Origin: a virus
Length of the DNA: 64,000 nt
IMG/VR virus record: IMGVR_UViG_3300010334_000030
Location: 64,001 to 128,000 of that record
Strand: one strand, 5' to 3'
Shown here piece by piece: positions 13,527 to 63,848 of the stretch (position 1 is the stretch's first letter; each line of letters opens with the position of its first letter). The translations under genes were made by a program, and so were the position numbers. The notes under the pieces are model-generated. The model had not been told where the DNA came from, did no database searches, and was given only the letters and a program-made list of their open reading frames with translations.

Positions 13527-14189
13527 ATGTCACCTATGCAAAACCAGCCAAAAAAGCCAAAAAATTCAATAAGGTTTAATATCACCTTAAATGAGGAACA
13601 AAAAGCGGCTAAGGAGAAGATATTGCAATCAAAAGTATCCTTTCTAAAGGGTCAAGCAGGTAGCGGTAAATCACTACTAGCAGCTCAGATAGCTTTGGAT
13701 CTACTCTTTAAAAAAGATGTTAAAAAAATAATACTTACCAGGCCTGCAGTTACCGCTGGTGAGGAAATTGGATTTCTGCCAGGCGACAAAGACGCTAAAT
13801 TAGCTCCATACACAGCTGCTATCTATGACAACATGTACATGCTGTACAATAAAGAAAAAATAGATAAAGAGATCTCAGAAGGAAATATAGAGGTTATACC
13901 TATTGGCTTTATGAGGGGTAGAAATTTCTCTGATTGTTGTGTAGTTATAGACGAATCTCAAAATATCACTCAAAATCAATTAGAGCTAATTATAACCAGG
14001 CTTTGTGTAGGTGCTAAAATGGTTTTTGTTGGTGATAACTCACAAATAGATCTAAAAGACAAAAGGCTAAGCGGATTCGACTGGTTATCAAAAAAACTAA
14101 GTTTTGTTGAAGGTGTTTCTGTTATATCTCTTAAAACAAATCACAGAGATCCAATAGTAGAAGAAATTCTTAAAGTTTTAAACGACTAA
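13527..14189 (+). CDS. phoH: PhoH-like ATPase
   Basis: Walker A GQAGSGKS, TRPAV..GEEIGFLPGD, FMRGRNF, DESQN, GDNSQIDL, HRDPIV motifs of the PhoH family. Confidence 0.95.
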   Translation: MSPMQNQPKKPKNSIRFNITLNEEQKAAKEKILQSKVSFLKGQAGSGKSLLAAQIALDLLFKKDVKKIILTRPAVTAGEEIGFLPGDKDAKLAPYTAAIYDNMYMLYNKEKIDKEISEGNIEVIPIGFMRGRNFSDCCVVIDESQNITQNQLELIITRLCVGAKMVFVGDNSQIDLKDKRLSGFDWLSKKLSFVEGVSVISLKTNHRDPIVEEILKVLND

Positions 14190-17100
14190 GCAGGTTCAGA
14201 ATCGAACGTAGCATCAGGATTATCGGGAATAACAACTTCAACACCAAATTGAATTCTGTTATTCTCGAGAATCTCTTTTTCTTGAACCATAAGATCATCC
14301 TCTAATTTTCTCACATCATAATCTCTACTAACGAAGGAAGGTTCAGGGTATCCATAATCAGTTGAATCAACAAAATTAGGATTATTGTCATCAGGTCTTT
14401 TGTTTTTATGATCAATAACTTGGATAAATCCAGGTAGTGATGCTTCGTAAACATTCCCAAAAGAATCCTCAACCTGATTGTATATTTGGTAATATCCACT
14501 CTTAGTAAATGTGTATATAAAGTAAGGAGTAGATTTAACATTAAGTATTTCTTCACCTGTGAGCGAATCTGAAAGAATCCAAACATTATTCTTCTTACCA
14601 TATATGTCAGAAGAATAGTTGTTAAAAACAACAGTAGACATAAGAGGAATTTCTAGATGATTATTGGACGAGTGCACGTCGCACCAGGTCCACGCTCCCG
14701 AGCCCGGGCGGGATATAATGTTTCCAAGGTTTATCCCAAGTTCAGGTTTATATTGTTCAGATTTAAGTGTAAAGTATGCTGGATAAATTGGGGAGATGAA
14801 ACCAGTTCCTGCTCCAGTTGTCCCATATGAACTAGATGTCATATAAATATCAGAACTCTTAGATGTTGAAAAAATCAAGTCTATAGATCTAGTTCCAAAA
14901 TTGTTTGAATCTAATATATTTCCTTTAGTGTCCGTTTTAACTATATTTGTTACATACTTAGTTTTGGTGGAATTGAAATTAGAATAACTCATAAAATATT
15001 GACCATTAGAAAGAATTCTCGCATCTTTTAAAAATGGTGCACCGTTATAGCTCTCACCAAGATCGAATGAAAATATTCTTCTCACTGAAGCTTGTTCTGT
15101 TATTTGTGCAGTTATTGCTCTTTTTATAGGATTGCCCCCAGTTCCAACAGACCAACTATTAACATTAGCTCCAAAATAAGATGCAGTCGGACCAAAAGCA
15201 GTTGTTATATAATAGGAAGTTCCAGTTTTAGTGGAATAGATCTCTGCAGTAGCTCCCGCGGTTAGACCATTTTCTATAAATCCACCAGTTACACCAAACC
15301 CCTCTGAGCTAACAAGAATATAATATGGCTGTGATTCATATCCAGAAGAGCTTGTTAAATCAGTACCGCCAAAATTAAAGGCAGGTGGGACATACGGAAT
15401 AATGTATGGCAAATATCCAGTTATTAAGCTACTTCCGGTATTTAACGAAGAGATTGAAAGAGTATGATCGTTATAAAATAAGTCCTGATTGGATGCTGAA
15501 TTAATACCTGATCTAATGGAAAAATCGTCTCTGTTTAGGCTTAAACAAGAAAGAAATCTCCAATCGAATGTCAGGTCTGTTAAATATTCAGGGCTTTTAT
15601 AAGAATCATTATTTCTTAGCCATAGATTTTTTAGCGTTGATAGTTTATTGTAATGGGGGATTAAAACATTAACGGTGTAATCAGTAACATCACAGGTAAC
15701 ACTTGAGCTATCATAGGAGCCAGACCAAATAGAGGTACTTGGAAATGATCTGAAATTTATAACTCTATACGATTTTCTGATCGATTCATTATATCCGCCG
15801 GTGATTCCAGTAAAAGATGTTATCTCTCCTAAATCTTTTTCAACCTCCGCAACAAAAACACCGGGTGCTTGTTTACTTGATAAAACGGTATTGCTTAGTA
15901 AACTTGAAAGGGAAGGTATTAAAGGAAAAGTTTTATTGGAATATGTATAGACATTAAAAACTAAGTCTGAAGTGGTTGGAATTGATGTTGAACCCGATCC
16001 AGACTGGAAAGAAACTTGAAAAACAAAACGAGTTTTTGTTGCAATTATTTCCTTATATCCAGACAATATAGAATAATATCCATATAAGCTAGGGGAAGCT
16101 GCTGTTCCGATCGTCATTGCATATCTGAATGGAAGGTTATCTAAATACGAATAAGCCGACACACTGGTATACTGTGTTTCATTTAATAATATTGTTGACA
16201 CACTTCCAAATGACCCAGCTGTTGCTCCGGTCGGAATCAAGAAATCACAATTCCCTGATGTTGCAGAATTGCCGGGTGAATATCTATAGGTTAATGATGA
16301 AACCGCACCATTAGTATATTTAGATCCAGTTGCTCCTGTTGCAGAATATATCCAGGGATAAGCTCCAGAGGTTGCTCCTGTTAAACCTGAATTAGTAATC
16401 CCCAAGGGAGCACCGCTAGGTCCATTAGAGTATCCAGTAACAGCGGAAGCCAAGCCGGAATAAACATACGATCCATTCTCAATTAACAGATTATAGGTTC
16501 CTGCTAAAACAATAGAATTTCCATCGGGGGAAGGTTTTATTGATGTTACTTCAGTACTACTTCCATTGAATGTTATACTTGATTTAACACATCCGCAATC
16601 ATCATACGAAACTACAAATCCAGTATAAGAAACGCCAGTATCGGTAGAATTTATATTAAATCCATTAGTCCCGGTAATAGTTAAAGGAGTCCCATCGTTA
16701 TATGATCCAAAATTAATTGATTTGTTTTGAGCTATTTTTCCTCCTATATACAGTCTGTTGGATCCATTTATCGTAAGGGTCGCTGATGAAGTTATTTTAA
16801 ATTCATAATCATTCCCGATATTAGGATTAAGCTGAGTAATCCATTTTGGAGATTGTATTTTATTGATAAGTAAATCCTGATCATATGTTGGGATTGGGTA
16901 GTTATTCCAATAGGCTTGTTCTCCCGCACGACCATCTGCAATATCAGATAGCTTTGTGGTTAGAAAAAGATTTCTCGGATCTAAACCAGGATGCTTATAT
17001 TCAAGCTCATCATTTTGATAAACCCTCCATTCTGGGTAAGTCCAAGTGTATTTGTTAACTTTTGGAATAGGTGAAGGTGATGCTCCTCCTGTTGGGCTAT

Positions 17101-46972: not shown

Positions 46973-48382
46973 TTATTTAATAGATTCTATAAAGAGATTA
47001 ACCGCTTTTTGTCTATATTTAATTCTATCCTCTTTTATTTCAGGGTTTTTAAGTGCCTCTTTTTTCCTGTTTAATATAGATTCGGGTAAAAGTGGACCAA
47101 ATGTGTCCTTAAGTATTTTTTTATCTGTCCTCCATTCTATAGGTAAATGCAAGGCAAATCTAACTATTTCTAGATTCAGGAATGGATTTCTTAACTCCAG
47201 GGTATGTGCCATAGACATTTTATCAAGTCTAGGCAAGTGGTAATAGGTAAGCTCTTCAAAAATGTCAGACTGCTGGGAGTCGTATTCGTGGATTCTTGAA
47301 TATCCGCCAAAGAGCTCATCAGAGCCGTCCCCGCTAATAACTATCCGATATCCTGTTTCCTTCTTAACTGCTTCAAATAAATGGTATTGCGGTATAACAG
47401 ATCCTAGATCTATAGGTCCTTCGTTCCAATCACAATAAATATCTGCCAGTTTGCTAGAATCCATATTGTAGTCTAAAAAGTTAATCGGGGTCTCTAAATG
47501 CTCACTAAGTGCTTTAACATACTGGGATTCCCCATTTTCTATAGAAAACCAGGTTACCTTGGATTCAAGCTGTTTAAGAATTGCTGCTATGATCGAAGAA
47601 TCTAGACCCCCAGAAACTAACACCGATATTGGATAGTTCTTAGACACCAGACGGAACTTTACGCTCTCTATCATTTTATCCCAAAGCCATTCCATATGAG
47701 CCTCGTAATCAGCTCCTATTAAGCTTTTAATTGGGGTTTCCCAAGCTCTATAATACTTAGGGAAAATGTGGTTAAAAAGTGGAGACGCTATATTGTAGGA
47801 ATAAATGTTATTTGGTAAAAGTCTTTTAATGTTTAGATAAGGTGTTCTTTCATCCTTATTATATCCCCATTTCCTAACCGAACTAATATAGGATTGGTCA
47901 AGATCACTTTGACCTGTAAATAGACCTTTTATCTCTGAGCAAATCTCACCAAGCTCATTTTTATAAAGGCACTTCTTACCAAGAGGATCGGTAAAGGCGA
48001 TAATATCACCAGTTTTAGAATTGTAGATAATTATAGCCCAAAATCCATCCCAAGTTTGAATATGAGGAATATACATAGCACTAAAGAACTCCACGCTTCC
48101 ACCTCTATAACTAGAGAATAAATTACAAAGATACTCAGTATCGGATGAAAATTTAGTTTGATCATAATTAAAGATCTCACCATTAAACATCAAATATATT
48201 CCATCTGATATTTCTAGAGGCTGTGCCCATTCATCACCATCTAATGTCTGGATGGGAAGTCTATGGTGGCATAGGGTAACACCATCAAGATCAACCATTG
48301 ATTTTTCTATTCCTCTATGTTCTATAGAATCTAAGAGTTCGGGCATTTCGCTGGCCCTAGTAGTTAGCAGTATTCCGCACAT
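46973..48382 (-). CDS. asnB: Asparagine synthetase B-like glutamine amidotransferase
   Basis: N-terminal MCGI (Ntn Cys2), HRG, HRL, FNGEIFN, SGGLDSS PP-loop, GDGSDELFGGY, ELRNPFL. Confidence 0.92.
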   Translation of the reverse strand: MCGILLTTRASEMPELLDSIEHRGIEKSMVDLDGVTLCHHRLPIQTLDGDEWAQPLEISDGIYLMFNGEIFNYDQTKFSSDTEYLCNLFSSYRGGSVEFFSAMYIPHIQTWDGFWAIIIYNSKTGDIIAFTDPLGKKCLYKNELGEICSEIKGLFTGQSDLDQSYISSVRKWGYNKDERTPYLNIKRLLPNNIYSYNIASPLFNHIFPKYYRAWETPIKSLIGADYEAHMEWLWDKMIESVKFRLVSKNYPISVLVSGGLDSSIIAAILKQLESKVTWFSIENGESQYVKALSEHLETPINFLDYNMDSSKLADIYCDWNEGPIDLGSVIPQYHLFEAVKKETGYRIVISGDGSDELFGGYSRIHEYDSQQSDIFEELTYYHLPRLDKMSMAHTLELRNPFLNLEIVRFALHLPIEWRTDKKILKDTFGPLLPESILNRKKEALKNPEIKEDRIKYRQKAVNLFIESIK

Positions 48383-48384
48383 AA

Positions 48385-48945
48385 TTAAATGGTAAATTCT
48401 GATTCAAAAAATGATTTAAGTTCTGATACAGTTTTAGTATCGAAAGTATTTTTAAAGATCTTTAAGTTTCCAATACCTATTTCGTTAAATTTAGAAATAA
48501 CAAACTCGAAAGCTTTCCTTTCTGCTGATGATTTATCGGCATAGTCCCATTGATCTTTATTTCTATCGGATTTATTTGGATTGTCCCCATCTATATAAAG
48601 GACGGTAATTCCTGACATTAAACCTGAATTTTTAATATAAAGAATTTGTTTAGCTGCATCAGACTTTGATATTCTATTCTCAGAAATTCCCCAGGCTAAA
48701 ACAGTTAGGATTCCGCGGTCGTGTATGAAGTCGGGTAGATTTATATCCTTAGCCATTTGCATAAGCATGAGTTCTTTACCCATTGAAAACGAATGTGCCT
48801 CTCTGTTGTCCTTACTGGAAAGCCCTAAGAGATTAAAATAGCTGCCAAAATCAAACTGGAATCTTGGGATCCCAACAAGCTTAGAGATCTCAGTAGAGAG
48901 ATAGGTTTTACCAGAATTTCGAGAACCTTCAAAAACATAGATCAT
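48385..48945 (-). CDS. P-loop nucleoside monophosphate kinase (thymidylate-kinase-like)
   Basis: VFEGSRNSGKT Walker A and IHDRG (DR motif). Confidence 0.75.
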   Translation of the reverse strand: MIYVFEGSRNSGKTYLSTEISKLVGIPRFQFDFGSYFNLLGLSSKDNREAHSFSMGKELMLMQMAKDINLPDFIHDRGILTVLAWGISENRISKSDAAKQILYIKNSGLMSGITVLYIDGDNPNKSDRNKDQWDYADKSSAERKAFEFVISKFNEIGIGNLKIFKNTFDTKTVSELKSFFESEFTI

Positions 48946-49043: not shown

Positions 49044-49949
49044 TTAACCTAATGTTTCTGTCGTTCCCTCAATATCACCAACTTTTTCTAGTTCGTCTGC
49101 ACTTGTAGTAGAAGTTTGATATGTTGCAGCCAAAGTACCAGCTATCTGCTGATTGTCTGGGCTTTCTAGAGCTTCCGCACCTCTTTTTAAAAGATCGTCC
49201 TTTACCTTCTTTGCACCCTGTTTTGCAAGATCTAATGCTTGTTTAAAAGCTTTTGATTTATTTGCTAAAGTATTTATTTTCTTAACAGATTTTAGGTTAT
49301 TGAAAGCAGATTTAACTTTCTTTAGCTTGGATGTTACCTTAGCTACGTTTTTAAGAGCTTTTACTCCTTTTACTGCTTTTTGAACACCATTTAATGCTTT
49401 CAAAGCTTTAGATCCTTTACTAACGAAGCTAATGATTTTTTGAGCATACATTAAACCTGCAGGAACGCCACAAGCAGTTAATGCAACAGAAGCAACCATC
49501 ATTATAATAGGCATGGCTTTTTTAATTACCTTGACTGCTTTTTGTGCAAACTTTTTAAGACCCGCACCTAGTTTTTTCCAAAATTTTTCATTAAGTGCTA
49601 AATATCCATTAAGCTCTTCCTCACTTAAATTCTCAACAGAATCTATACCTAGATCTTCAGCAAGATAATTTAAGAAATCCCTTTCACTGAAATCATCAAA
49701 GTGCTCCTTTAAAAATTCAGAAAGAGACATATCTTCAGGGATATCAAAATCCTCGTTCAAGTCATTCATATCAAATCCAAGCTTCTCTGCAACTAAATCT
49801 AAGTAACCCTTACCCTCTGTAAGAACCATCTCATCAATTGCACGAAGCTGTTCAACGGTTAGGTTGTCAAGATCAAAACTCTTACATGACTCAAAAAGGG
49901 GTGATTTGTTAGATCCTTGAGAACTGCTAAATGGCAATATATTTTTCAT
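49044..49949 (-). CDS. Probable internal head/ejection protein: acidic pro-region, LNE site, cationic amphipathic helix and hydrophobic segment
   Basis: ...LALNE|KFWKKLGAGLKKFAQKAVKVIKK AMPIIMMVASVALTACGVPAGLMYA. Confidence 0.7.
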   Translation of the reverse strand: MKNILPFSSSQGSNKSPLFESCKSFDLDNLTVEQLRAIDEMVLTEGKGYLDLVAEKLGFDMNDLNEDFDIPEDMSLSEFLKEHFDDFSERDFLNYLAEDLGIDSVENLSEEELNGYLALNEKFWKKLGAGLKKFAQKAVKVIKKAMPIIMMVASVALTACGVPAGLMYAQKIISFVSKGSKALKALNGVQKAVKGVKALKNVAKVTSKLKKVKSAFNNLKSVKKINTLANKSKAFKQALDLAKQGAKKVKDDLLKRGAEALESPDNQQIAGTLAATYQTSTTSADELEKVGDIEGTTETLG

Positions 49950-49984
49950 AAGTCTTTATGTTTGTTATATTCTATATTGGATAA

Positions 49985-50701
49985 TTATCCGTCATTTTCG
50001 TCGTCTTCTGGCTCAAGGTCTGCTGCATTCTCTGGTACTGTTGAAGGAGGAATCTGTTTCTTTACAGATTTAGCGGTTTCAACCGCAGCGGTAAAAGCAG
50101 GAGCTATGTTTTTAATTGTTTGCATATTATCAGCACTGAAAAGCGCTTTTGCTCCATTCTTCTTTACATCATTAAAAACTTTACCTAAACTTGCCTGAAC
50201 TACATCAGCAGTCTTTCCCATTTCTGGGTTTGAATCCGATTTAGAAATCAATTTTGTTATATTAGGATATTTAGCAGCTAGTTTTCCAAGTCCACCCTGG
50301 AATTTACCAAGAAAAGCTTTAAGTTTTGGACTAGCATCAGCGGGAATCACTTTTGATATAATAGGACCAGCTATACTTTTCACCTTAGCTACTACTTCTT
50401 TTGCTTTATTAAAAGCTTTTTTCAACCAACCTTTCTCGTTAATATTGTACTCATCAGATTCGTCTAACATTTCAAAATCAAATTCATAGTCATCAGATAT
50501 ACCCTCTCTCATACAGATAAGGTCAAATGTACAAATTCCGTGATTTTCTGCCAATCTATCAAGATCTGCCAATTCCTGCTCGTTTAGGGAATTGAAGTCT
50601 AAATGACTAACGCTTTCTAAAAGCTCGGATTCATCTATTTTATAATATCCTGAGATTTCTTTTTCTGAACCGTAGTTCTCAAATGCAACGATGTTTTTCA
50701 T
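49985..50701 (-). CDS. Probable internal head/ejection protein (paralog family with 49044 and 50724 genes)
   Basis: MKNIVAFENY; LDRLAENHGICTFDLICMRE; YNINE|KGWLKKAFNKAKEVVAKVK. Confidence 0.7.
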   Translation of the reverse strand: MKNIVAFENYGSEKEISGYYKIDESELLESVSHLDFNSLNEQELADLDRLAENHGICTFDLICMREGISDDYEFDFEMLDESDEYNINEKGWLKKAFNKAKEVVAKVKSIAGPIISKVIPADASPKLKAFLGKFQGGLGKLAAKYPNITKLISKSDSNPEMGKTADVVQASLGKVFNDVKKNGAKALFSADNMQTIKNIAPAFTAAVETAKSVKKQIPPSTVPENAADLEPEDDENDG

Positions 50702-50723
50702 TTTTCTATTTTTATTTTTTTAT

Positions 50724-51452
50724 TTAGGCTGTCGGAATGTCACTAGATGACCATGGCTTTGGATCAGTTACGGCCTTAGGTACATTATTCTTTTCACCGT
50801 TCTTATTTCCTGTTTCTTTTATATTAAAAACCACCTCTTTTATAGCGGTTTGAATGATACCTATGCCCATACTAGAGCGTTTGTTGTCTTCGCTAAAAAG
50901 AGAACTTTGTGCTCTAGATTCATTATCTTTTAAAACCTTACCGTAAGTATTCACCAAAACATTAACGACATATTTATGCTCCGGAGTTTTATTTGCAATA
51001 TCGTAAAGTTCTTCCGAAGATTTAGGTCCTTTTGCAAGGGCTTTCTTTAAACCTTTTATGTACATATCAACAACTTTATTTATTGTTTGTAATGTCTTTG
51101 GTGGCATCGGTTCTTTTTTCTTGTCACCATCTATACTTAGACCATCTATTGCTTTTTTTACATCAGGCTTGATTTTGTTAATTTGTTCATTAACTGTTTT
51201 TACTAGCCAACCTGGTGCTGATGATTCATATATTTCATAATCAGAAGAAAAGTTTTCCGGCTCGTTCATACAAACAACATCAAGTGTGCAAAGATCTGAG
51301 GATTCAACCAACATATCTAATTGGTAGAAATCATCCTCGTTTATTTTTTCATACCCTCCATTAGACTCGTTTAAATTAAAAGACTTCTTTAGTATTTTCT
51401 GCACAGTATTAAAAACTGCATAGTTGTTAAAGGAAAAAAGATTACTGTTCAT
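50724..51452 (-). CDS. Probable internal head protein (paralog of 49985 gene)
   Basis: LFSFNNY; LNES; LDMLVESSDLCTLDVVCMNE; GWLVKTVNE; GKVLKD..SLFSEDN matches GKVFND..ALFSADN of neighbour. Confidence 0.7.
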   Translation of the reverse strand: MNSNLFSFNNYAVFNTVQKILKKSFNLNESNGGYEKINEDDFYQLDMLVESSDLCTLDVVCMNEPENFSSDYEIYESSAPGWLVKTVNEQINKIKPDVKKAIDGLSIDGDKKKEPMPPKTLQTINKVVDMYIKGLKKALAKGPKSSEELYDIANKTPEHKYVVNVLVNTYGKVLKDNESRAQSSLFSEDNKRSSMGIGIIQTAIKEVVFNIKETGNKNGEKNNVPKAVTDPKPWSSSDIPTA

Positions 51453-56420: not shown

Positions 56421-58199
56421 TTAAACTATACCACCTGATGGGATGTTTACGAAGAATGTAATATACATTGTTTCAGGTAAGAAACCAGCTTCAACTAGAG
56501 CGTATCTAGATTTAACTGCGATCTTAGGAGACATTGTACCTTCAGAGATAGTCTGAATTGATTCAGCCATCATGTAAGGCATAAACTTAAGACCTGGTTC
56601 GTCATCACCACCTTTTCTACCAACTAGGATTCTAGTATCGGCGTAGTTCATGTTCTGATCTACGTAAACAGTCATACCAGCAAGAGAACCTACAGGGTAT
56701 AATGTACCGTTATTTTGAGTCAAAGTGTTAGAGAATGGAGCGAATGTGAACTGGCTAATGTCTTGCAAAGCAGAAGCGATTTGAGAGTTAGTAACGATGA
56801 AGTTAGCAGGTCCTCTTCTACCTCTGTTAGCAACTACGTTAGCAGCAGCAAGGATTCTAGAGAATAATCTTCTTTGTAAAGTTGATTGGTTCTCAAAGTT
56901 GTTAGTCGCGATTTGACCAGGAACTGCTAAGGTAACACCAGAGTCATCTTTACCTACGTAAGCAGCTGTGTTAGCAGCAGCTGAAGTAGACAAGTTCAAG
57001 TTCAAGTTTTGTCCATCAACGTTGTTGAATTGTACGTGGTTTGACCAACCTAAAGCGAATGCTCTAGAAAGGATGTGCTTGTTAATAGCTTGAGAAACCT
57101 CGTTAACAAGAGCGTTTTCAATCATTGAAATCACATCGATACCGAATTGCTTATTCAAATCTTGGATTTGCTCAGTTGTAACAGAAGCAGCAACTTGGAA
57201 AGTCTCAGCTTCTACGAACTTAGTGAAAGTAGAAAGACCCATTGAGTTGTAGTATGTAGATTCTCCAACCGCTCTTAACATTGGGTTGTAAGTCTTAGTA
57301 CCATCAACATATGGTCCTTGTAAAGCATTGTCATTGTTGAAACCAGCACCAGAGAAACCTTGGATATGATCTTCAAGAGCTTTAACCAATGAAGCTGTAC
57401 TTGCAACAGTTGCAGTTGCAAGAGGAGCAGTAAGTGAAGCAGCAGCAGTTGCAGCAGCAGTAGCGCTATAAGGAGAAGCTACAACTTTAATGTAAGCAGC
57501 AGTTGTAGTTTGAACTATACTAGCAACGTTATATCCATTAGTAATGTCCAAGATACTGAAGATTGGACTTCCGTCTATTCTTGAAAGACCAACAAATGCA
57601 GCACTAATGTATGCAGAAGCTGTACCAATTACGTAAGTGATACTGCTTGAGTTTGCAGCAGAAGGAATGCTAAATGTTCCTGATGTAGCACCTACAGTAC
57701 CAGTAGCGCCGTAAGCAGCAAATTTAATCATTGCAGGAGCATCAGCTAAATCTGCACCAGCAGAAGCTGAAGTAGCACCAGAGATTTTACCACCAGCATA
57801 TACGTAGTCTAAGTAAGACAAGATACCAGTAGGACCAGACATTGGGATAACAGGAACGATATCAAAACCAACAGTCTTCGCAGCTACTTGAATAGCTAAA
57901 GGAAGTAATGAAGGGAATTTATCGCCTGAACCTTGATATCCAGTGTTGTAGAAGTTAGCATTAGCACTCGTACCAAAAGTAGTGTTACCGTAGCTAGCAC
58001 CTGGGAATAAAGGAGCTTGTACAGCACCCATACCGTTTACTACACCTAAAGTGTTGTAAGCACCAGCAGATTCGTTTAATGAATGGTAGTGACAATATTT
58101 AGTCAGCCATCCTTTTTTGCTTTCATCTGTAATACCTGCTTTGCTCTCGATTAGAGGCGCCCAAGTACTATAGATTTCTTGTTCGTTAATCAATTTCAT
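56421..58199 (-). CDS. gp23: Major capsid protein (T4 gp23-like)
   Basis: DIVPVIPMSGPTG, EQIQDLNKQFGIDV, RGRRGPANFIVT, VGSLAGMTVYVD, LVGRKG, FMPY, PKIAVKSRYAL; strongly biased codon usage; follows protease/scaffold. Confidence 0.95.
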   Translation of the reverse strand: MKLINEQEIYSTWAPLIESKAGITDESKKGWLTKYCHYHSLNESAGAYNTLGVVNGMGAVQAPLFPGASYGNTTFGTSANANFYNTGYQGSGDKFPSLLPLAIQVAAKTVGFDIVPVIPMSGPTGILSYLDYVYAGGKISGATSASAGADLADAPAMIKFAAYGATGTVGATSGTFSIPSAANSSSITYVIGTASAYISAAFVGLSRIDGSPIFSILDITNGYNVASIVQTTTAAYIKVVASPYSATAAATAAASLTAPLATATVASTASLVKALEDHIQGFSGAGFNNDNALQGPYVDGTKTYNPMLRAVGESTYYNSMGLSTFTKFVEAETFQVAASVTTEQIQDLNKQFGIDVISMIENALVNEVSQAINKHILSRAFALGWSNHVQFNNVDGQNLNLNLSTSAAANTAAYVGKDDSGVTLAVPGQIATNNFENQSTLQRRLFSRILAAANVVANRGRRGPANFIVTNSQIASALQDISQFTFAPFSNTLTQNNGTLYPVGSLAGMTVYVDQNMNYADTRILVGRKGGDDEPGLKFMPYMMAESIQTISEGTMSPKIAVKSRYALVEAGFLPETMYITFFVNIPSGGIV

Positions 58200-58223: not shown

Positions 58224-60218
58224 TTATCTGTTTGTAAACTTTTTCTCTAAAGCAGAAGCTATGTAACTCATATAATCTGATGAGTAAGCTTGAGCTGCTT
58301 GAGATTGGTTGTTTGAAACCTCTTCGCTTTCTTGAAGCTTCTGAAGACCTACTGGGCTAGTTCCAAGTTGACGTGTTGACCAGAAATTTTTGATCTGGTA
58401 TGGGGTATCTAATCTATAGAAGTTAGACTGAGCAACAATTGATTGCTTGTGTCCTTCTGATAGTGATTCCCAAACCTGAGCATACTCTTCAGGCATTTCA
58501 TCAATAAATTTGAAACCTGTTTCATGTAAGTTCTCCTCTGATTCATTAAGCATTTGTTCTGCCTTTTGTTTGTTGGCGTTTTTAGCTAATCTATTAGCTG
58601 CTTCGTTTATATTCTCCTCAGTTTTTTTGGTTTGAACTGATTCAATTAGAGAGTCGATTTTTGATGAGATATCATCGTAGCTTCCTGCAAATCCAGATTC
58701 GTTAAGATCTGATTCAACTGTAAATTCTACGCTTTCTCTTAAGTTAGTTTGGTTGCTGTAAGGATTTCCCTTCTGTACTGATTCTGCAATATACTCACTG
58801 TAAGAAATTGATCTACTAAGTTTTTCTGCTAAGTACTCAGAATAATCTATGCCCTTATTTAGATTTTCTGCTAAATAGTCAGTATATTCAATACCTCTGT
58901 TTAGATTTTCTGCAACATACTCAGTATATTCAATGCCGTCATTTAATTTTTCGGCTAGGTACTCAGTATAAGCAACACCTTTATTTAGATTTTCTCCAAG
59001 ATACTCAGAATAAGAAATGTTATTATCAACATTCTCAGCTAAGTACTCAGAATATTGGATGTTTTGATCCAACTTCTCAGCTAAATACTTAGAGTACTCG
59101 ATATTATTATCTACGCTTTCTGCAACATATTCTGTGTAAGAGATTGACTTATCAACGTTCTCAGCTAAATACTTAGAATATGAAATTGACTTGTCAACGT
59201 TCTCAGCTAGGTATCTAGAATATGAAATTGACTTATCCAAATTCTCAGCTAAATATTTGCTATAAGTGATGCTATTGTCAAGATTCTCTGACAAATATTC
59301 GCCATACTTAATAGCGTTTTCTAAATTTTCAGCTAGGTAATCTGAATATTTTTCAAGTTTAGCAACTCTTTCTTCCAATTCGTAAGAATCGTTAGTGGGT
59401 TGTTTTTGTTCTTTTAAGTCTGCAATGACTGACTTCATAGAATCCATTTCTTTTTTCAAGAAAACTGAATACTTATTTAGCTCGTCTGCGGTAACAAATT
59501 CATTGTTCTCCATAAGGGCTTTCTTATTTTTATTATCCGTTTTGTTTATGATATTGTAAAATTCCTCATTATCAACTTTATATATCTTTAATGAAGATTC
59601 ATTTTCTAGACCTAGAGATTCATTTATACACTCAAGATCATTAGTTATGCTATTAGACTGGAAACTCTTAAATTCCTCTGAGCTAAACCCTGCGCTCTCG
59701 TACACTCTATCAAGCTGTGCATTTTGAAATCCAGGATCAGCAACTAGGTCATATGTGAAAATCTTTTTAATTTGAACCTTTTTGTCGTTACCAACTGAAC
59801 CTGCTGCTCTAGACGATATAGATAAAGGAATACCTGCATCCACAATTTTTTTTGCTACTTCTCCTGCTGGGGTATCTAAAAGTTTAACTTTAATTCTTAA
59901 AGTTTTGTCACCCTTATTATGAATTAAATCTGTAACAAGGTGAGAAATATTTTTAAGAGAAACATCAAATTTTTCAGGATGATCCAATTCACCAACTAAT
60001 CTTTTTTGATCTATCTTCTCTTTTAAATACTCAAGATGGGGAAGATACTCTTTTTCCTCGTATATTCTGTGGTTGTTGTTTTCTTTACCAAAAACCGCTG
60101 CAATACCCTCTAAAAGATATTCATTATCAGAAGACTTCTTTGACTCGAGAACAAAATCCTGCTTATCCAGGATAAACACCATTTGCTCAGTTAATAAATT
60201 ATCTTTCAATCTCGGCAT
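58224..60218 (-). CDS. gp21: Prohead maturation protease (T4 gp21-like) fused to scaffolding/core domain
   Basis: NNNHRIY, GELDHP, ISSRAAG, YDLVADPG catalytic motifs; C-terminal 14-aa heptad repeats. Confidence 0.92.
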   Translation of the reverse strand: MPRLKDNLLTEQMVFILDKQDFVLESKKSSDNEYLLEGIAAVFGKENNNHRIYEEKEYLPHLEYLKEKIDQKRLVGELDHPEKFDVSLKNISHLVTDLIHNKGDKTLRIKVKLLDTPAGEVAKKIVDAGIPLSISSRAAGSVGNDKKVQIKKIFTYDLVADPGFQNAQLDRVYESAGFSSEEFKSFQSNSITNDLECINESLGLENESSLKIYKVDNEEFYNIINKTDNKNKKALMENNEFVTADELNKYSVFLKKEMDSMKSVIADLKEQKQPTNDSYELEERVAKLEKYSDYLAENLENAIKYGEYLSENLDNSITYSKYLAENLDKSISYSRYLAENVDKSISYSKYLAENVDKSISYTEYVAESVDNNIEYSKYLAEKLDQNIQYSEYLAENVDNNISYSEYLGENLNKGVAYTEYLAEKLNDGIEYTEYVAENLNRGIEYTDYLAENLNKGIDYSEYLAEKLSRSISYSEYIAESVQKGNPYSNQTNLRESVEFTVESDLNESGFAGSYDDISSKIDSLIESVQTKKTEENINEAANRLAKNANKQKAEQMLNESEENLHETGFKFIDEMPEEYAQVWESLSEGHKQSIVAQSNFYRLDTPYQIKNFWSTRQLGTSPVGLQKLQESEEVSNNQSQAAQAYSSDYMSYIASALEKKFTNR
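58780..59348 (-). repeat. Coding tandem repeat, 14 x 42 bp (YSEYLAENLDKSIS)
   Basis: 14 consecutive Y[LVI][ASG]E units at 14-aa spacing. Confidence 0.95.
59579..59586 (-). promoter_or_regulatory. Putative internal late promoter GATATATA within protease gene
   Basis: Exact motif 66 nt upstream of in-frame ATG 59513 (Met236). Confidence 0.45.
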
Positions 60219-62979: not shown

Positions 62980-63777
62980 CTATTTTTCTGAGTAAATTTT
63001 ATTATAAGCCTCTGAGATCGTATCTATAATCTTTTCTATATATCCTTCATTTCTAAGCTTCTTAAAGGACAAATTTCCTATAGAGAACTCCCCGTCTTTT
63101 CTTAGAGATTCCTTTCTCATTTTTTGAATCTTCTCTTTGAGCTTTATTGCTCTTTTATAAAGTTTCTTAGCATCCGAAGGTAAAGTGCTCACAGTTAATT
63201 TTGTGTGGATCTGATCAATCTCATAAGCTATAGATTCAGTCTTTTTATTAACATCCGCTTCATCAACTTCTGGCGGGTCAAAAACTGGGGTCTTTATCCA
63301 TTCATTATTTAGAAGAGAAAAAAGACCAGAAGAATCGTGGATTAGACTTGAATCCTGAACGTACATCTCCACATCATATCCACGGATCTTTATATTGTGT
63401 CTAAGGTTCCAAATGAATCTAATTCCGTCAACAGCAGCTTTAACTATTTTTGGGTTATCCTCGTCTATGTCTTCTAAATTTACAATTACATGAACATCTA
63501 AGTCGGATAGTGGGGTATAGTTATAATTTGAGATAGATCCAGTTAACTGGATATCTATTATATCCTTCTGCTTTAGTATGTCCTCGAATTTTTCAAAGAA
63601 ATCGTTTGATATTCTAAGGAGCTTTCTTCTTACCCTCTGATCCATCTGCCAAGTAACCTTCCCTGACTTATCGGTCTTCTTAGTCCAAAATGTTGGATTT
63701 AGCTCATCATTATAGAAAGGACCTATTTTAGCCTCATTGACTTTATGATATTGATCGTATTGTAAAATTTGGGGCAA
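62980..63777 (-). CDS. Pol-beta superfamily nucleotidyltransferase (start probably TTG 63777 rather than 63804)
   Basis: LTGSISNYNYTPLSDLDVHV (GS...DxD) and YDVEMY; promoter motif overlaps the 63804 start. Confidence 0.8.
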   Translation of the reverse strand: MPQILQYDQYHKVNEAKIGPFYNDELNPTFWTKKTDKSGKVTWQMDQRVRRKLLRISNDFFEKFEDILKQKDIIDIQLTGSISNYNYTPLSDLDVHVIVNLEDIDEDNPKIVKAAVDGIRFIWNLRHNIKIRGYDVEMYVQDSSLIHDSSGLFSLLNNEWIKTPVFDPPEVDEADVNKKTESIAYEIDQIHTKLTVSTLPSDAKKLYKRAIKLKEKIQKMRKESLRKDGEFSIGNLSFKKLRNEGYIEKIIDTISEAYNKIYSEK

Positions 63778-63794
63778 TAAAAAAGACTTTCCTT

Positions 63795-63802
63795 TATATA
63801 TC
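63795..63802 (-). promoter_or_regulatory. Putative late promoter GATATATA inside an 11-bp inverted repeat
   Basis: Motif flanked by AAAAGACTTTC (63781-63791) and GAAAGTCTTTT (63807-63817). Confidence 0.6.
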
Positions 63803-63848
63803 AAAAGAAAGTCTTTTAAGTTTATATTCTAGAGGTAAACCCCTTTAA

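Follow-up and report, generated by a model that had tools for sequence, protein, structure and literature searches.

A small family of putative processed internal head proteins with acidic propieces and cationic amphipathic mature N-termini in an uncultivated jumbo myophage

Three consecutive open reading frames (ORFs) on the minus strand, here called genes A, B and C, were found within positions 49044-51452 of a 64,000-nt stretch of viral DNA (the window), which comprises bases 64001-128000 of the 141-kb IMG/VR record IMGVR_UViG_3300010334_000030. With an estimated completeness of roughly one half, this record points to a jumbo phage. Judged from sequence, A, B and C are most probably a small, previously unnamed family of processed capsid-internal (ejection-type) head proteins of this jumbo myophage, whose acidic N-terminal halves appear to be designed for removal by the prohead protease and whose basic mature parts would begin at or close to an amphipathic helix. 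What seems to be new here is a rare family of a known type (processed internal or ejection proteins) with unusually antimicrobial peptide (AMP)-like mature N-termini and, in C, a helix of membrane-spanning grade.

Paralogous genes with an acidic-to-basic charge switch

B could be aligned with A over the full length (BLASTP expectation value (E)=1e-16, 26% identity) and matched C with E=2e-6, and the comparison of A with C gave only E=0.03; the three are tied into one family because the distant member P0014 matches both C (6e-7) and B (3e-6). By these similarities A, B and C are paralogs, and a family-profile search of the whole 141-kb record recovered exactly three copies, namely A, B and C themselves. 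All genes are open under translation table 11, so recoding was rejected.

Each of the three proteins falls into an acidic pro-part and a basic, Lys-rich mature part (Table 1). In B, the charge per 20 amino acids (aa) remains between -4 and -8 until residue 89 and then turns to +5, and in C it remains between -5 and -7 until residue 121 and then turns to +6/+7. The predicted mature parts of B (aa 90-238; 149 aa, net +8) and C (aa 122-301; 180 aa, net +23) contain no [IL]xE tripeptide at all, and that of A (166 aa, net +8), which starts 3-4 residues ahead of an amphipathic helix opening with GWL, contains two. An initial annotation made from the letters alone had described a shared acidic N-region with an abrupt charge switch, which the charge profiles of B and C bear out, and the positions it gave for INE in B (aa 87-89) and for LNE in C (aa 119-121) are correct. 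Its extension of an INE/LNE boundary to all three genes holds for B and C, whereas in A a conserved I/L-Y-E precedes the GWL helix by 3-4 residues instead. When the charge-switch point was located in 17 family members independently of any motif, an [IL]xE tripeptide was found to end 0-4 residues from the switch in 15 of them (exactly on it in 10), including members down to E=2e-4. The conserved boundary tripeptide is overall [IL]-[N/D/Y]-E, placed at the transition from the acidic to the Lys-rich region.

The core of the B propiece is the sole part of this protein with an AlphaFold2 predicted local distance difference test (pLDDT) value >60, and it is probably a targeting or docking element. 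Since it is also the best-conserved part of B (90%), the propiece would be more than a counter-charge, and a docking function is very likely. The cationic segment behind the predicted cut of B is only 42% identical among orthologs, yet its charge stays at +6 to +9 and its amphipathicity is kept, suggesting that selection acts on the physical chemistry of the cationic part and not on its sequence. Hydrophobic-moment analysis of the post-cleavage segments, a check that the initial annotation had proposed, gave 0.52 for B and 0.60-0.66 for C (z=3.0), and the hydrophobic helix it had noticed in C was also recovered, with a Kyte-Doolittle (KD) mean of 2.04 for the 19-mer at aa 148. The 19-residue KD values of A and B are 1.05 and 1.23, and neither protein has a hydrophobic segment of bilayer-spanning length.

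The N-termini of A, B and C follow the pattern M-K-N-I/L-x-x-F-x-x-Y and resemble the capsid-targeting leaders of the T4 internal proteins (M-K-x-hydrophobic-x-x-F, read from AF158101), so that a targeting role may be suggested. In an hhalign comparison of the family with an otherwise unrelated 383-aa protein encoded next to C in sister phages, the leader alone could be aligned.

Table 1. Coordinates of the three paralogs, their predicted parts and the associated head genes (positions in the window)
Feature	Positions	Strand	Remarks
Paralog A, 242 aa	50724..51452	(-)	Leader-like N-terminus, then acidic pro-part aa 1-76 (net -10)
Predicted boundary site I-Y-E of A, aa 74-76	51225..51233	(-)	IYE or LYE in orthologs
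Paralog B, 238 aa	49985..50701	(-)	Pro-part aa 1-89: net -20, six [IL]xE
Conserved propiece core of B, aa 36-67, two invariant Cys	50501..50596	(-)	90% pairwise identity among B orthologs
Predicted maturation site I-N-E of B, aa 87-89	50435..50443	(-)	Every B ortholog has I-[N/D]-E or LNE here
Cationic amphipathic segment of B, aa 90-125	50327..50434	(-)	+6; hydrophobic moment 0.52
Conserved C-terminal helical domain of B, aa 158-216	50054..50230	(-)	NPE...GKV...LFSxDN motifs; common to all family members including C
Paralog C, 301 aa	49044..49949	(-)	Pro-part aa 1-121: net -22, ten [IL]xE
Predicted maturation site L-N-E of C, aa 119-121	49587..49595	(-)	Both orthologs have [IL]NE
Cationic amphipathic helix of C, aa 122-145	49515..49586	(-)	+9 in 24 aa; hydrophobic moment 0.60-0.66, z=3.0 versus shuffles
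Hydrophobic transmembrane-grade segment of C, aa 145-169	49443..49517	(-)	Conserved in L004 and L006 orthologs
Extended series of Lys-rich amphipathic helices in C, aa 171-266	49152..49439	(-)	Ends in the family's conserved C-terminal motif
Prohead protease, 664 aa, fused to long scaffold-like C-terminal part	58224..60218	(-)	Presumed processing enzyme
Major capsid protein (Gp23 family)	56421..58199	(-)	N-terminal 43 aa end in L-N-E

Enrichment of the predicted cleavage motif in head-core proteins

The gp21 protease of T4 cleaves after L/I-X-E (PMC9026906), and the protease encoded upstream of A, B and C belongs to the same family: it matches Peptidase_S77 (PF03420, the T4 gp21 family) with 30.1 bits against a cutoff of 27 as well as the PHROG category 'head maturation protease', and it is annotated likewise at the orthologous loci. 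Its C-terminal part of ~410 aa looks like a scaffold domain that has been attached to the protease and destroys itself, and the counterpart in phage PTm1 is annotated as 'prohead core scaffolding protein and protease'.

The number of [IL]xE tripeptides in each segment was compared with composition-preserving shuffles. The pooled pro-parts of 11 representative family members, in which every propiece holds 4-14 such tripeptides, contain 70 where 26.7 are expected (2.6-fold; none of 2000 shuffles reached 70). An excess was also observed in the scaffold-like C-terminal part of the protease (23 vs 7.6 expected) and in aa 1-43 of the capsid protein (3 vs 0.9). The mature parts show no enrichment (8 observed, 11.7 expected), nor was any excess over shuffles detected in three large tail proteins, in the 896-aa gene that may encode the portal, or in an Asn-synthase-like gene. 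As the enrichment is limited to the pro-parts, the protease tail and the capsid N-terminus, [IL]xE appears to be a selected motif in the head-core proteins of this jumbo phage, and the acidic halves seem to be built for being chopped into small pieces by the protease, cleavage itself being predicted.

The capsid propeptide of LR756500.1 ends in L-Y-E; together with L-N-E in the present capsid protein, these are the two variants found at the boundaries of A (L-Y-E type) and of B and C (L-N-E type). The cleavage site of T4 gp23 could not be transferred to the capsid protein, as the N-terminal alignment is too weak (domain E-value 2.7). The capsid propeptide also holds K-K-G-W-L-T-K at aa 28-35, and GW[LF] occurs only three times in the 40 proteins of the window, i.e., in this propeptide and at the new N-termini of A and B. 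GWLxK as a shared docking helix is only suggestive, with two independent occurrences, and may be due to chance.

The position of the three genes also speaks for processed internal head proteins. A, B and C lie 5-7 kb downstream of the S77 protease and Gp23-type capsid genes, on the same strand and in the same gene run. The order protease, capsid, 380-aa, 303-aa, 90-aa and ~830-aa genes, A, B, C, a 186-aa gene and the Asn-synthase-like gene is conserved, and it has been kept in three metagenomic lineages (L004, L006/L007 and L016).

Comparison with known internal head proteins and membrane-active peptides

In giant phages, the packaged internal ejection proteins add up to tens of megadaltons, and the roles of most of them are unknown, including the most abundant ones of SPN3US and phiKZ. 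In SPN3US, gp53 and gp54 are adjacent paralogs and proven, abundant ejection proteins whose propeptides of 125 and 137 aa are cut several times (PMC10052503, PMC7411985, PMC5694885). Their phiKZ relatives are likewise ejection proteins of the head that are encoded by tandem paralogs and lose long propeptides through multiple cuts (PMC10052503, PMC5694885). The initial annotation knew of no description of such an arrangement in myophages; this has to be given up, since gp53 and gp54 already show the layout. The descriptors used above were also computed for gp53 and gp54 (JN641803) and for the T4 internal proteins IPI-III (AF158101), using published cleavage sites. The pro-parts of gp53 and gp54 carry net charges of -15 and -26, their mature parts +7 and +10, and the hydrophobic moments at their new N-termini are 0.58 and 0.72. 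The likeness to A, B and C thus includes tandem paralogs of a giant myophage, an acidic multi-site propeptide, a basic mature part and an amphipathic new N-terminus; furthermore, the propeptides of gp53 and gp54 are cut at several x-x-E sites by the prohead protease, and gp53 matures to a G-W start.

There are, however, clear differences. The phiKZ proteins gp93/94/95/162/163 belong to the same Pfam group PF12699 (giant-phage internal head or ejection proteins), whereas the present family has no PF12699 hit and its hhalign profile comparison with gp53+gp54 gave a probability of only 3.3%. The SPN3US protease is of the S80 type with an A/S/G-x-E motif, and here an S77 enzyme and [IL]xE are found. 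The new N-termini described here are far more cationic (+6 to +9 vs +3 for gp53/gp54, in 24-30 aa), and a transmembrane (TM)-grade segment is present in paralog C. The shared layout is best regarded as convergence and not homology. Two unrelated families with two protease specificities would then have one design, in which a multiply cut acidic propiece precedes a basic mature part whose new N-terminus is amphipathic, and this suggests a general rule for keeping cargo inert, targeted and then activated.

The T4 internal proteins IPI, IPII and IPIII resemble A, B and C in the S77 protease and L/I-X-E motif (PMC9026906), in a leader of the form M-K-x-aromatic/aliphatic-x-x-F ending in [IL]xE, and in basic, Lys-rich mature proteins of a poorly conserved and lineage-specific family. 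In contrast, T4 propeptides are 10-19 aa long and not acidic, compared with 76-121 aa and net charges of -10 to -22 here, and the T4 proteins have neither cationic amphipathic windows nor a hydrophobic segment. No sequence homology between A, B or C and the T4 internal proteins was detected in PHROG and Pfam scans.

Among the lytic factors of non-enveloped animal viruses, adenovirus protein VI and the nodavirus gamma peptide have a membrane-active amphipathic helix that a maturation cleavage within the assembled particle frees or exposes and that is used at the next entry. The logic would be the same, but these proteins act on eukaryotic endosomal membranes and have no homology to A, B and C, and the activity that is demonstrated there is hypothesised here. 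The likeness to cecropin and sarcotoxin IA is one of physico-chemistry only (a Lys-rich amphipathic helix with an aromatic at position 2-3, to which B adds an A-G-P hinge). The kinship with these peptides at which the initial annotation had hinted did not survive, because no Pfam Cecropin match and no cecropin-type PDB match was obtained at E<=10 and GWLKK is replaced in orthologs. Neither 50-aa nor whole mature segments hit the Pfam Cecropin family at E<=10, and the only PDB hit at this threshold was an unrelated antibody domain. A cecropin-like secreted precursor releasing a free peptide of ~35-40 aa was also rejected, as there is no signal peptide and the N-terminus is polar and leader-like. 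The idea of a mature 25-30-mer is likewise at odds with the absence of a second [IL]xE downstream of the helix in B and C, which leaves proteins of 149 and 180 aa. Of the initial proposal, the architecture is retained, with its acidic propiece, predicted prohead-protease site and cationic amphipathic helix, given that an S77 protease is encoded and its motif is enriched in the pro-parts and present at the boundary, but the AMP label overstates the case and does not amount to membership of a family.

A phage-encoded cationic AMP-like lysis protein has been described, the 'disruptin' gp28 of phiKT (bioRxiv 10.1101/515445). It resembles A, B and C as a cationic amphipathic membrane disruptor from a phage; it is, however, a small, unprocessed product of a lysis cassette that attacks the outer membrane from within at lysis, whereas A, B and C are head-cassette proteins with propieces rich in protease sites.

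Possible fate and function of the mature proteins

In the favoured reading, the leader and pro-core would dock each precursor into the prohead scaffolding core, and the propiece would neutralise the segments prone to bind membranes and DNA and hold them in solution within the producing cell. The S77 protease would chop the acidic propiece into small fragments that exit the head, and the mature basic proteins of 149-180 aa would stay among the packaged DNA. At infection, these proteins would exit via the tail, with or ahead of the DNA; their exposed amphipathic N-termini and the hydrophobic helix of C could then engage the host cytoplasmic membrane, where the bound proteins might help to form or hold open a DNA conduit, or depolarise the membrane. 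Membrane engagement after ejection is possible but is proposed tentatively, and similar reserve applies to the whole chain from processed internal head protein through ejection to action on the host membrane.

Membrane-inserting ejection proteins are known as a class, e.g., T7 gp14-16 and P22 gp7/16/20. The observations that lean towards such a role here are the conserved hydrophobic segment of C, the Gly-zipper-like stretches of distant family members and the aromatic residues that open the exposed helix. In addition, sister lineages carry an extra 383-aa gene directly after C (L006:11857-13008, L016:9861-11012), whose product begins with a leader-like sequence, continues with a strongly acidic region that holds I-F-E and I-N-E, and further on has 2-3 TM-grade segments rich in Ala/Gly/Val; beyond the leader, no homology of this protein to the A/B/C family could be detected with hhalign. 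Because C and this neighbouring gene of the sister phages both have TM-grade segments, action on the membrane following ejection is plausible, for C in particular and less so for A.

Several points weigh against a membrane role or against the reading as a whole. We infer packaging, cleavage and ejection of A, B and C alike for a phage that is uncultivated and known from metagenomes. For the membrane channel of contractile-tail phages, one would usually think first of the tape measure and the tail-tip proteins. The insertion energy of the C segment is ~+1.95 kcal/mol on an approximate scale, which is borderline only, and the new N-terminus of A is weakly cationic (+3 in 24 aa). The Lys richness follows partly from the genomic G+C content of 34%, and Lys-rich amphipathic helices can equally well bind DNA or pack in helical bundles. 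The AlphaFold2 model of B (from a 10-row alignment) consists entirely of helices with a pLDDT of 41.5, which is uninformative and too poor for a fold search. ESM Atlas scores for B and mature C, which did not exceed 0.84 and are at chance level, were of no help for either reading, and an SseC translocator row (0.76) was disregarded. The SPN3US and phiKZ analogues are assigned to an inner body or a protein mass embedded in the DNA (PMC5694885), and lysines of the T4 internal proteins contact DNA phosphates (PMC3012670).

The last two points belong to an explanation in which A, B and C are DNA-associated core proteins only, with Lys-rich helices that neutralise and organise the packaged DNA and enter the cell passively. 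This is possible, and nearly as probable as the membrane reading. It agrees with the mature parts being net basic (+8 to +25), nearly all from Lys, and with gp53/gp54 being counted among the internal protein mass of SPN3US and their phiKZ homologues among the inner-body components; a removal of acidic propieces ahead of DNA entry would fit the order of T4 maturation (PMC9026906). However, it leaves unexplained the TM-grade segment of C, the Gly-zipper-like stretches and the multi-TM neighbour in L006/L016, and aromatics at positions 2-3 of the new N-terminus are typical of interfacial membrane helices. Moreover, the T4 internal proteins do without amphipathic cationic windows, and B orthologs with long poly-Asp tails would be net neutral after the predicted cleavage.

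An accessory scaffold is a less probable alternative: the proteins would build or size a large prohead core and be mostly expelled after proteolysis, with nothing functional delivered. Coiled-coil, scaffold-like genes of 380 and 303 aa lie in the same cassette beside the protease-scaffold fusion, the 90% identity of the pro-core points to an assembly interaction, and T4 IPIII mutants have head-assembly defects (PMC9026906). Such a fate is nevertheless improbable, since mature B and C have no [IL]xE against 23 in the protease tail, the pattern of parts that are kept rather than degraded, and the C-terminal domain is conserved across the whole family. It is very improbable that A, B and C are not virion proteins at all but factors of lysis or antagonism, either disrupting the outer membrane like a disruptin or acting as bacteriocin-like products: the precedent of the phage lysis protein cited above and the AMP-like charge and amphipathicity of the mature N-termini speak for this, but the genes lie in the head cassette and not next to an endolysin or holin, the products (238-301 aa) lack a signal peptide and have long acidic pro-parts rich in head-protease motifs, and the sole evident activating enzyme acts inside proheads.

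A stronger form of the favoured reading of ejected internal head proteins would be a 'pro-lytic' head cargo, which the acidic propiece masks, the prohead protease arms, and which permeabilises or remodels the membrane of the next host. This form is rather unlikely on present evidence. If true, such cargo would be the bacterial-virus counterpart of adenovirus protein VI and the nodavirus gamma peptide, and convergence would have led to the same principle in the abundant gp53 and gp54 of SPN3US-like giant phages. A membrane role, if confirmed, would add a step to myophage genome delivery and provide a natural source of masked membrane-active proteins; if false, A, B and C would simply be a new, rare internal head protein family of an uncultivated phage clade.

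Distribution of the family

A word-indexed search retrieved six relatives of B with 44-93% identity, and a profile search of 1.84 billion representatives recovered ten clusters only, so the family is rare. One syntenic IMG/VR contig was found in a locus search with the B alignment. The distant members (E 7e-19 to 2e-4) are located on short contigs in other gene contexts. Their N-terminal half has a leader-like start and an acidic part with a conserved Cys-containing helix, followed by [IL]-N-E or I-Y-E; downstream, there is an amphipathic start rich in Gly/Lys/Phe, Gly-zipper-like hydrophobic stretches (KD up to 1.63) and the conserved C-terminal motifs. The member P0013 (297 aa) has an N-terminal zinc-ribbon-like extension (CxxC...CPRCG), whose sequence is present as a separate upstream ORF of 90 aa at L010:596-868, so that P0013 is probably a gene fusion or has a miscalled start.

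Neither A, B and C nor seven neighbouring genes gave a meaningful match in PHROG and Pfam scans. Among Pfam matches of the mature parts at E<=10, ApoLp-III (0.053) and the PspC TM region (0.051) are sub-threshold look-alikes and were treated as composition effects. None of 50,697 phage records was matched by the region, B or C in blastn and tblastn searches, and no member was found when LR756500.1, which is the closest capsid relative, and Tenacibaculum phage PTm1 were searched with the family profile; the proteomics of cultured relatives such as PTm1 can therefore not be transferred.

Genomic context and neighbouring genes

Upstream of A on the same strand, the gene run consists of the 896-aa gene, the protease and capsid genes, and then genes of 380, 303, 90 and 823 aa, for which no family match was obtained in PHROG and Pfam scans. 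The rest of the window is filled by baseplate and tail genes. The nearest relatives of the capsid protein (30-46% identity) were found in LR756500.1, Lak megaphages, Tenacibaculum phage PTm1 and Sphingomonas phage PAU, i.e., in huge phages, mostly of Bacteroidota. In LR756500.1 (L012), no head-core cassette follows the capsid gene, and homing-endonuclease-like and transposase-like ORFs are present at 13751-16598 instead.

Between 43666 and 56281 (-), at least eight additional genes, including those of 380, 303, 90, 823, 213 and 314 aa, encode an N-terminal leader that resembles those of T4 internal proteins and has [ILV]-x-E at its end, which suggests a large set of head-packaged cargo in this cassette. 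Upstream of the 896-aa gene, a 274-aa protein (62980-63804 (-)) has a Pfam NTP_transf_2 (nucleotidyltransferase) match, with SidM_N below cutoff. Inside the head-core cassette there are also an Asn-synthase-like amidotransferase (46973-48382 (-); Pfam Asn_synthase, GATase_6/7) and a 186-aa protein (48385-48945 (-)) whose sequence G-x-x-x-x-G-K-T resembles a P-loop; both genes are syntenic in L004, L006 and L016, and one possibility is that they take part in the modification of head proteins or DNA.

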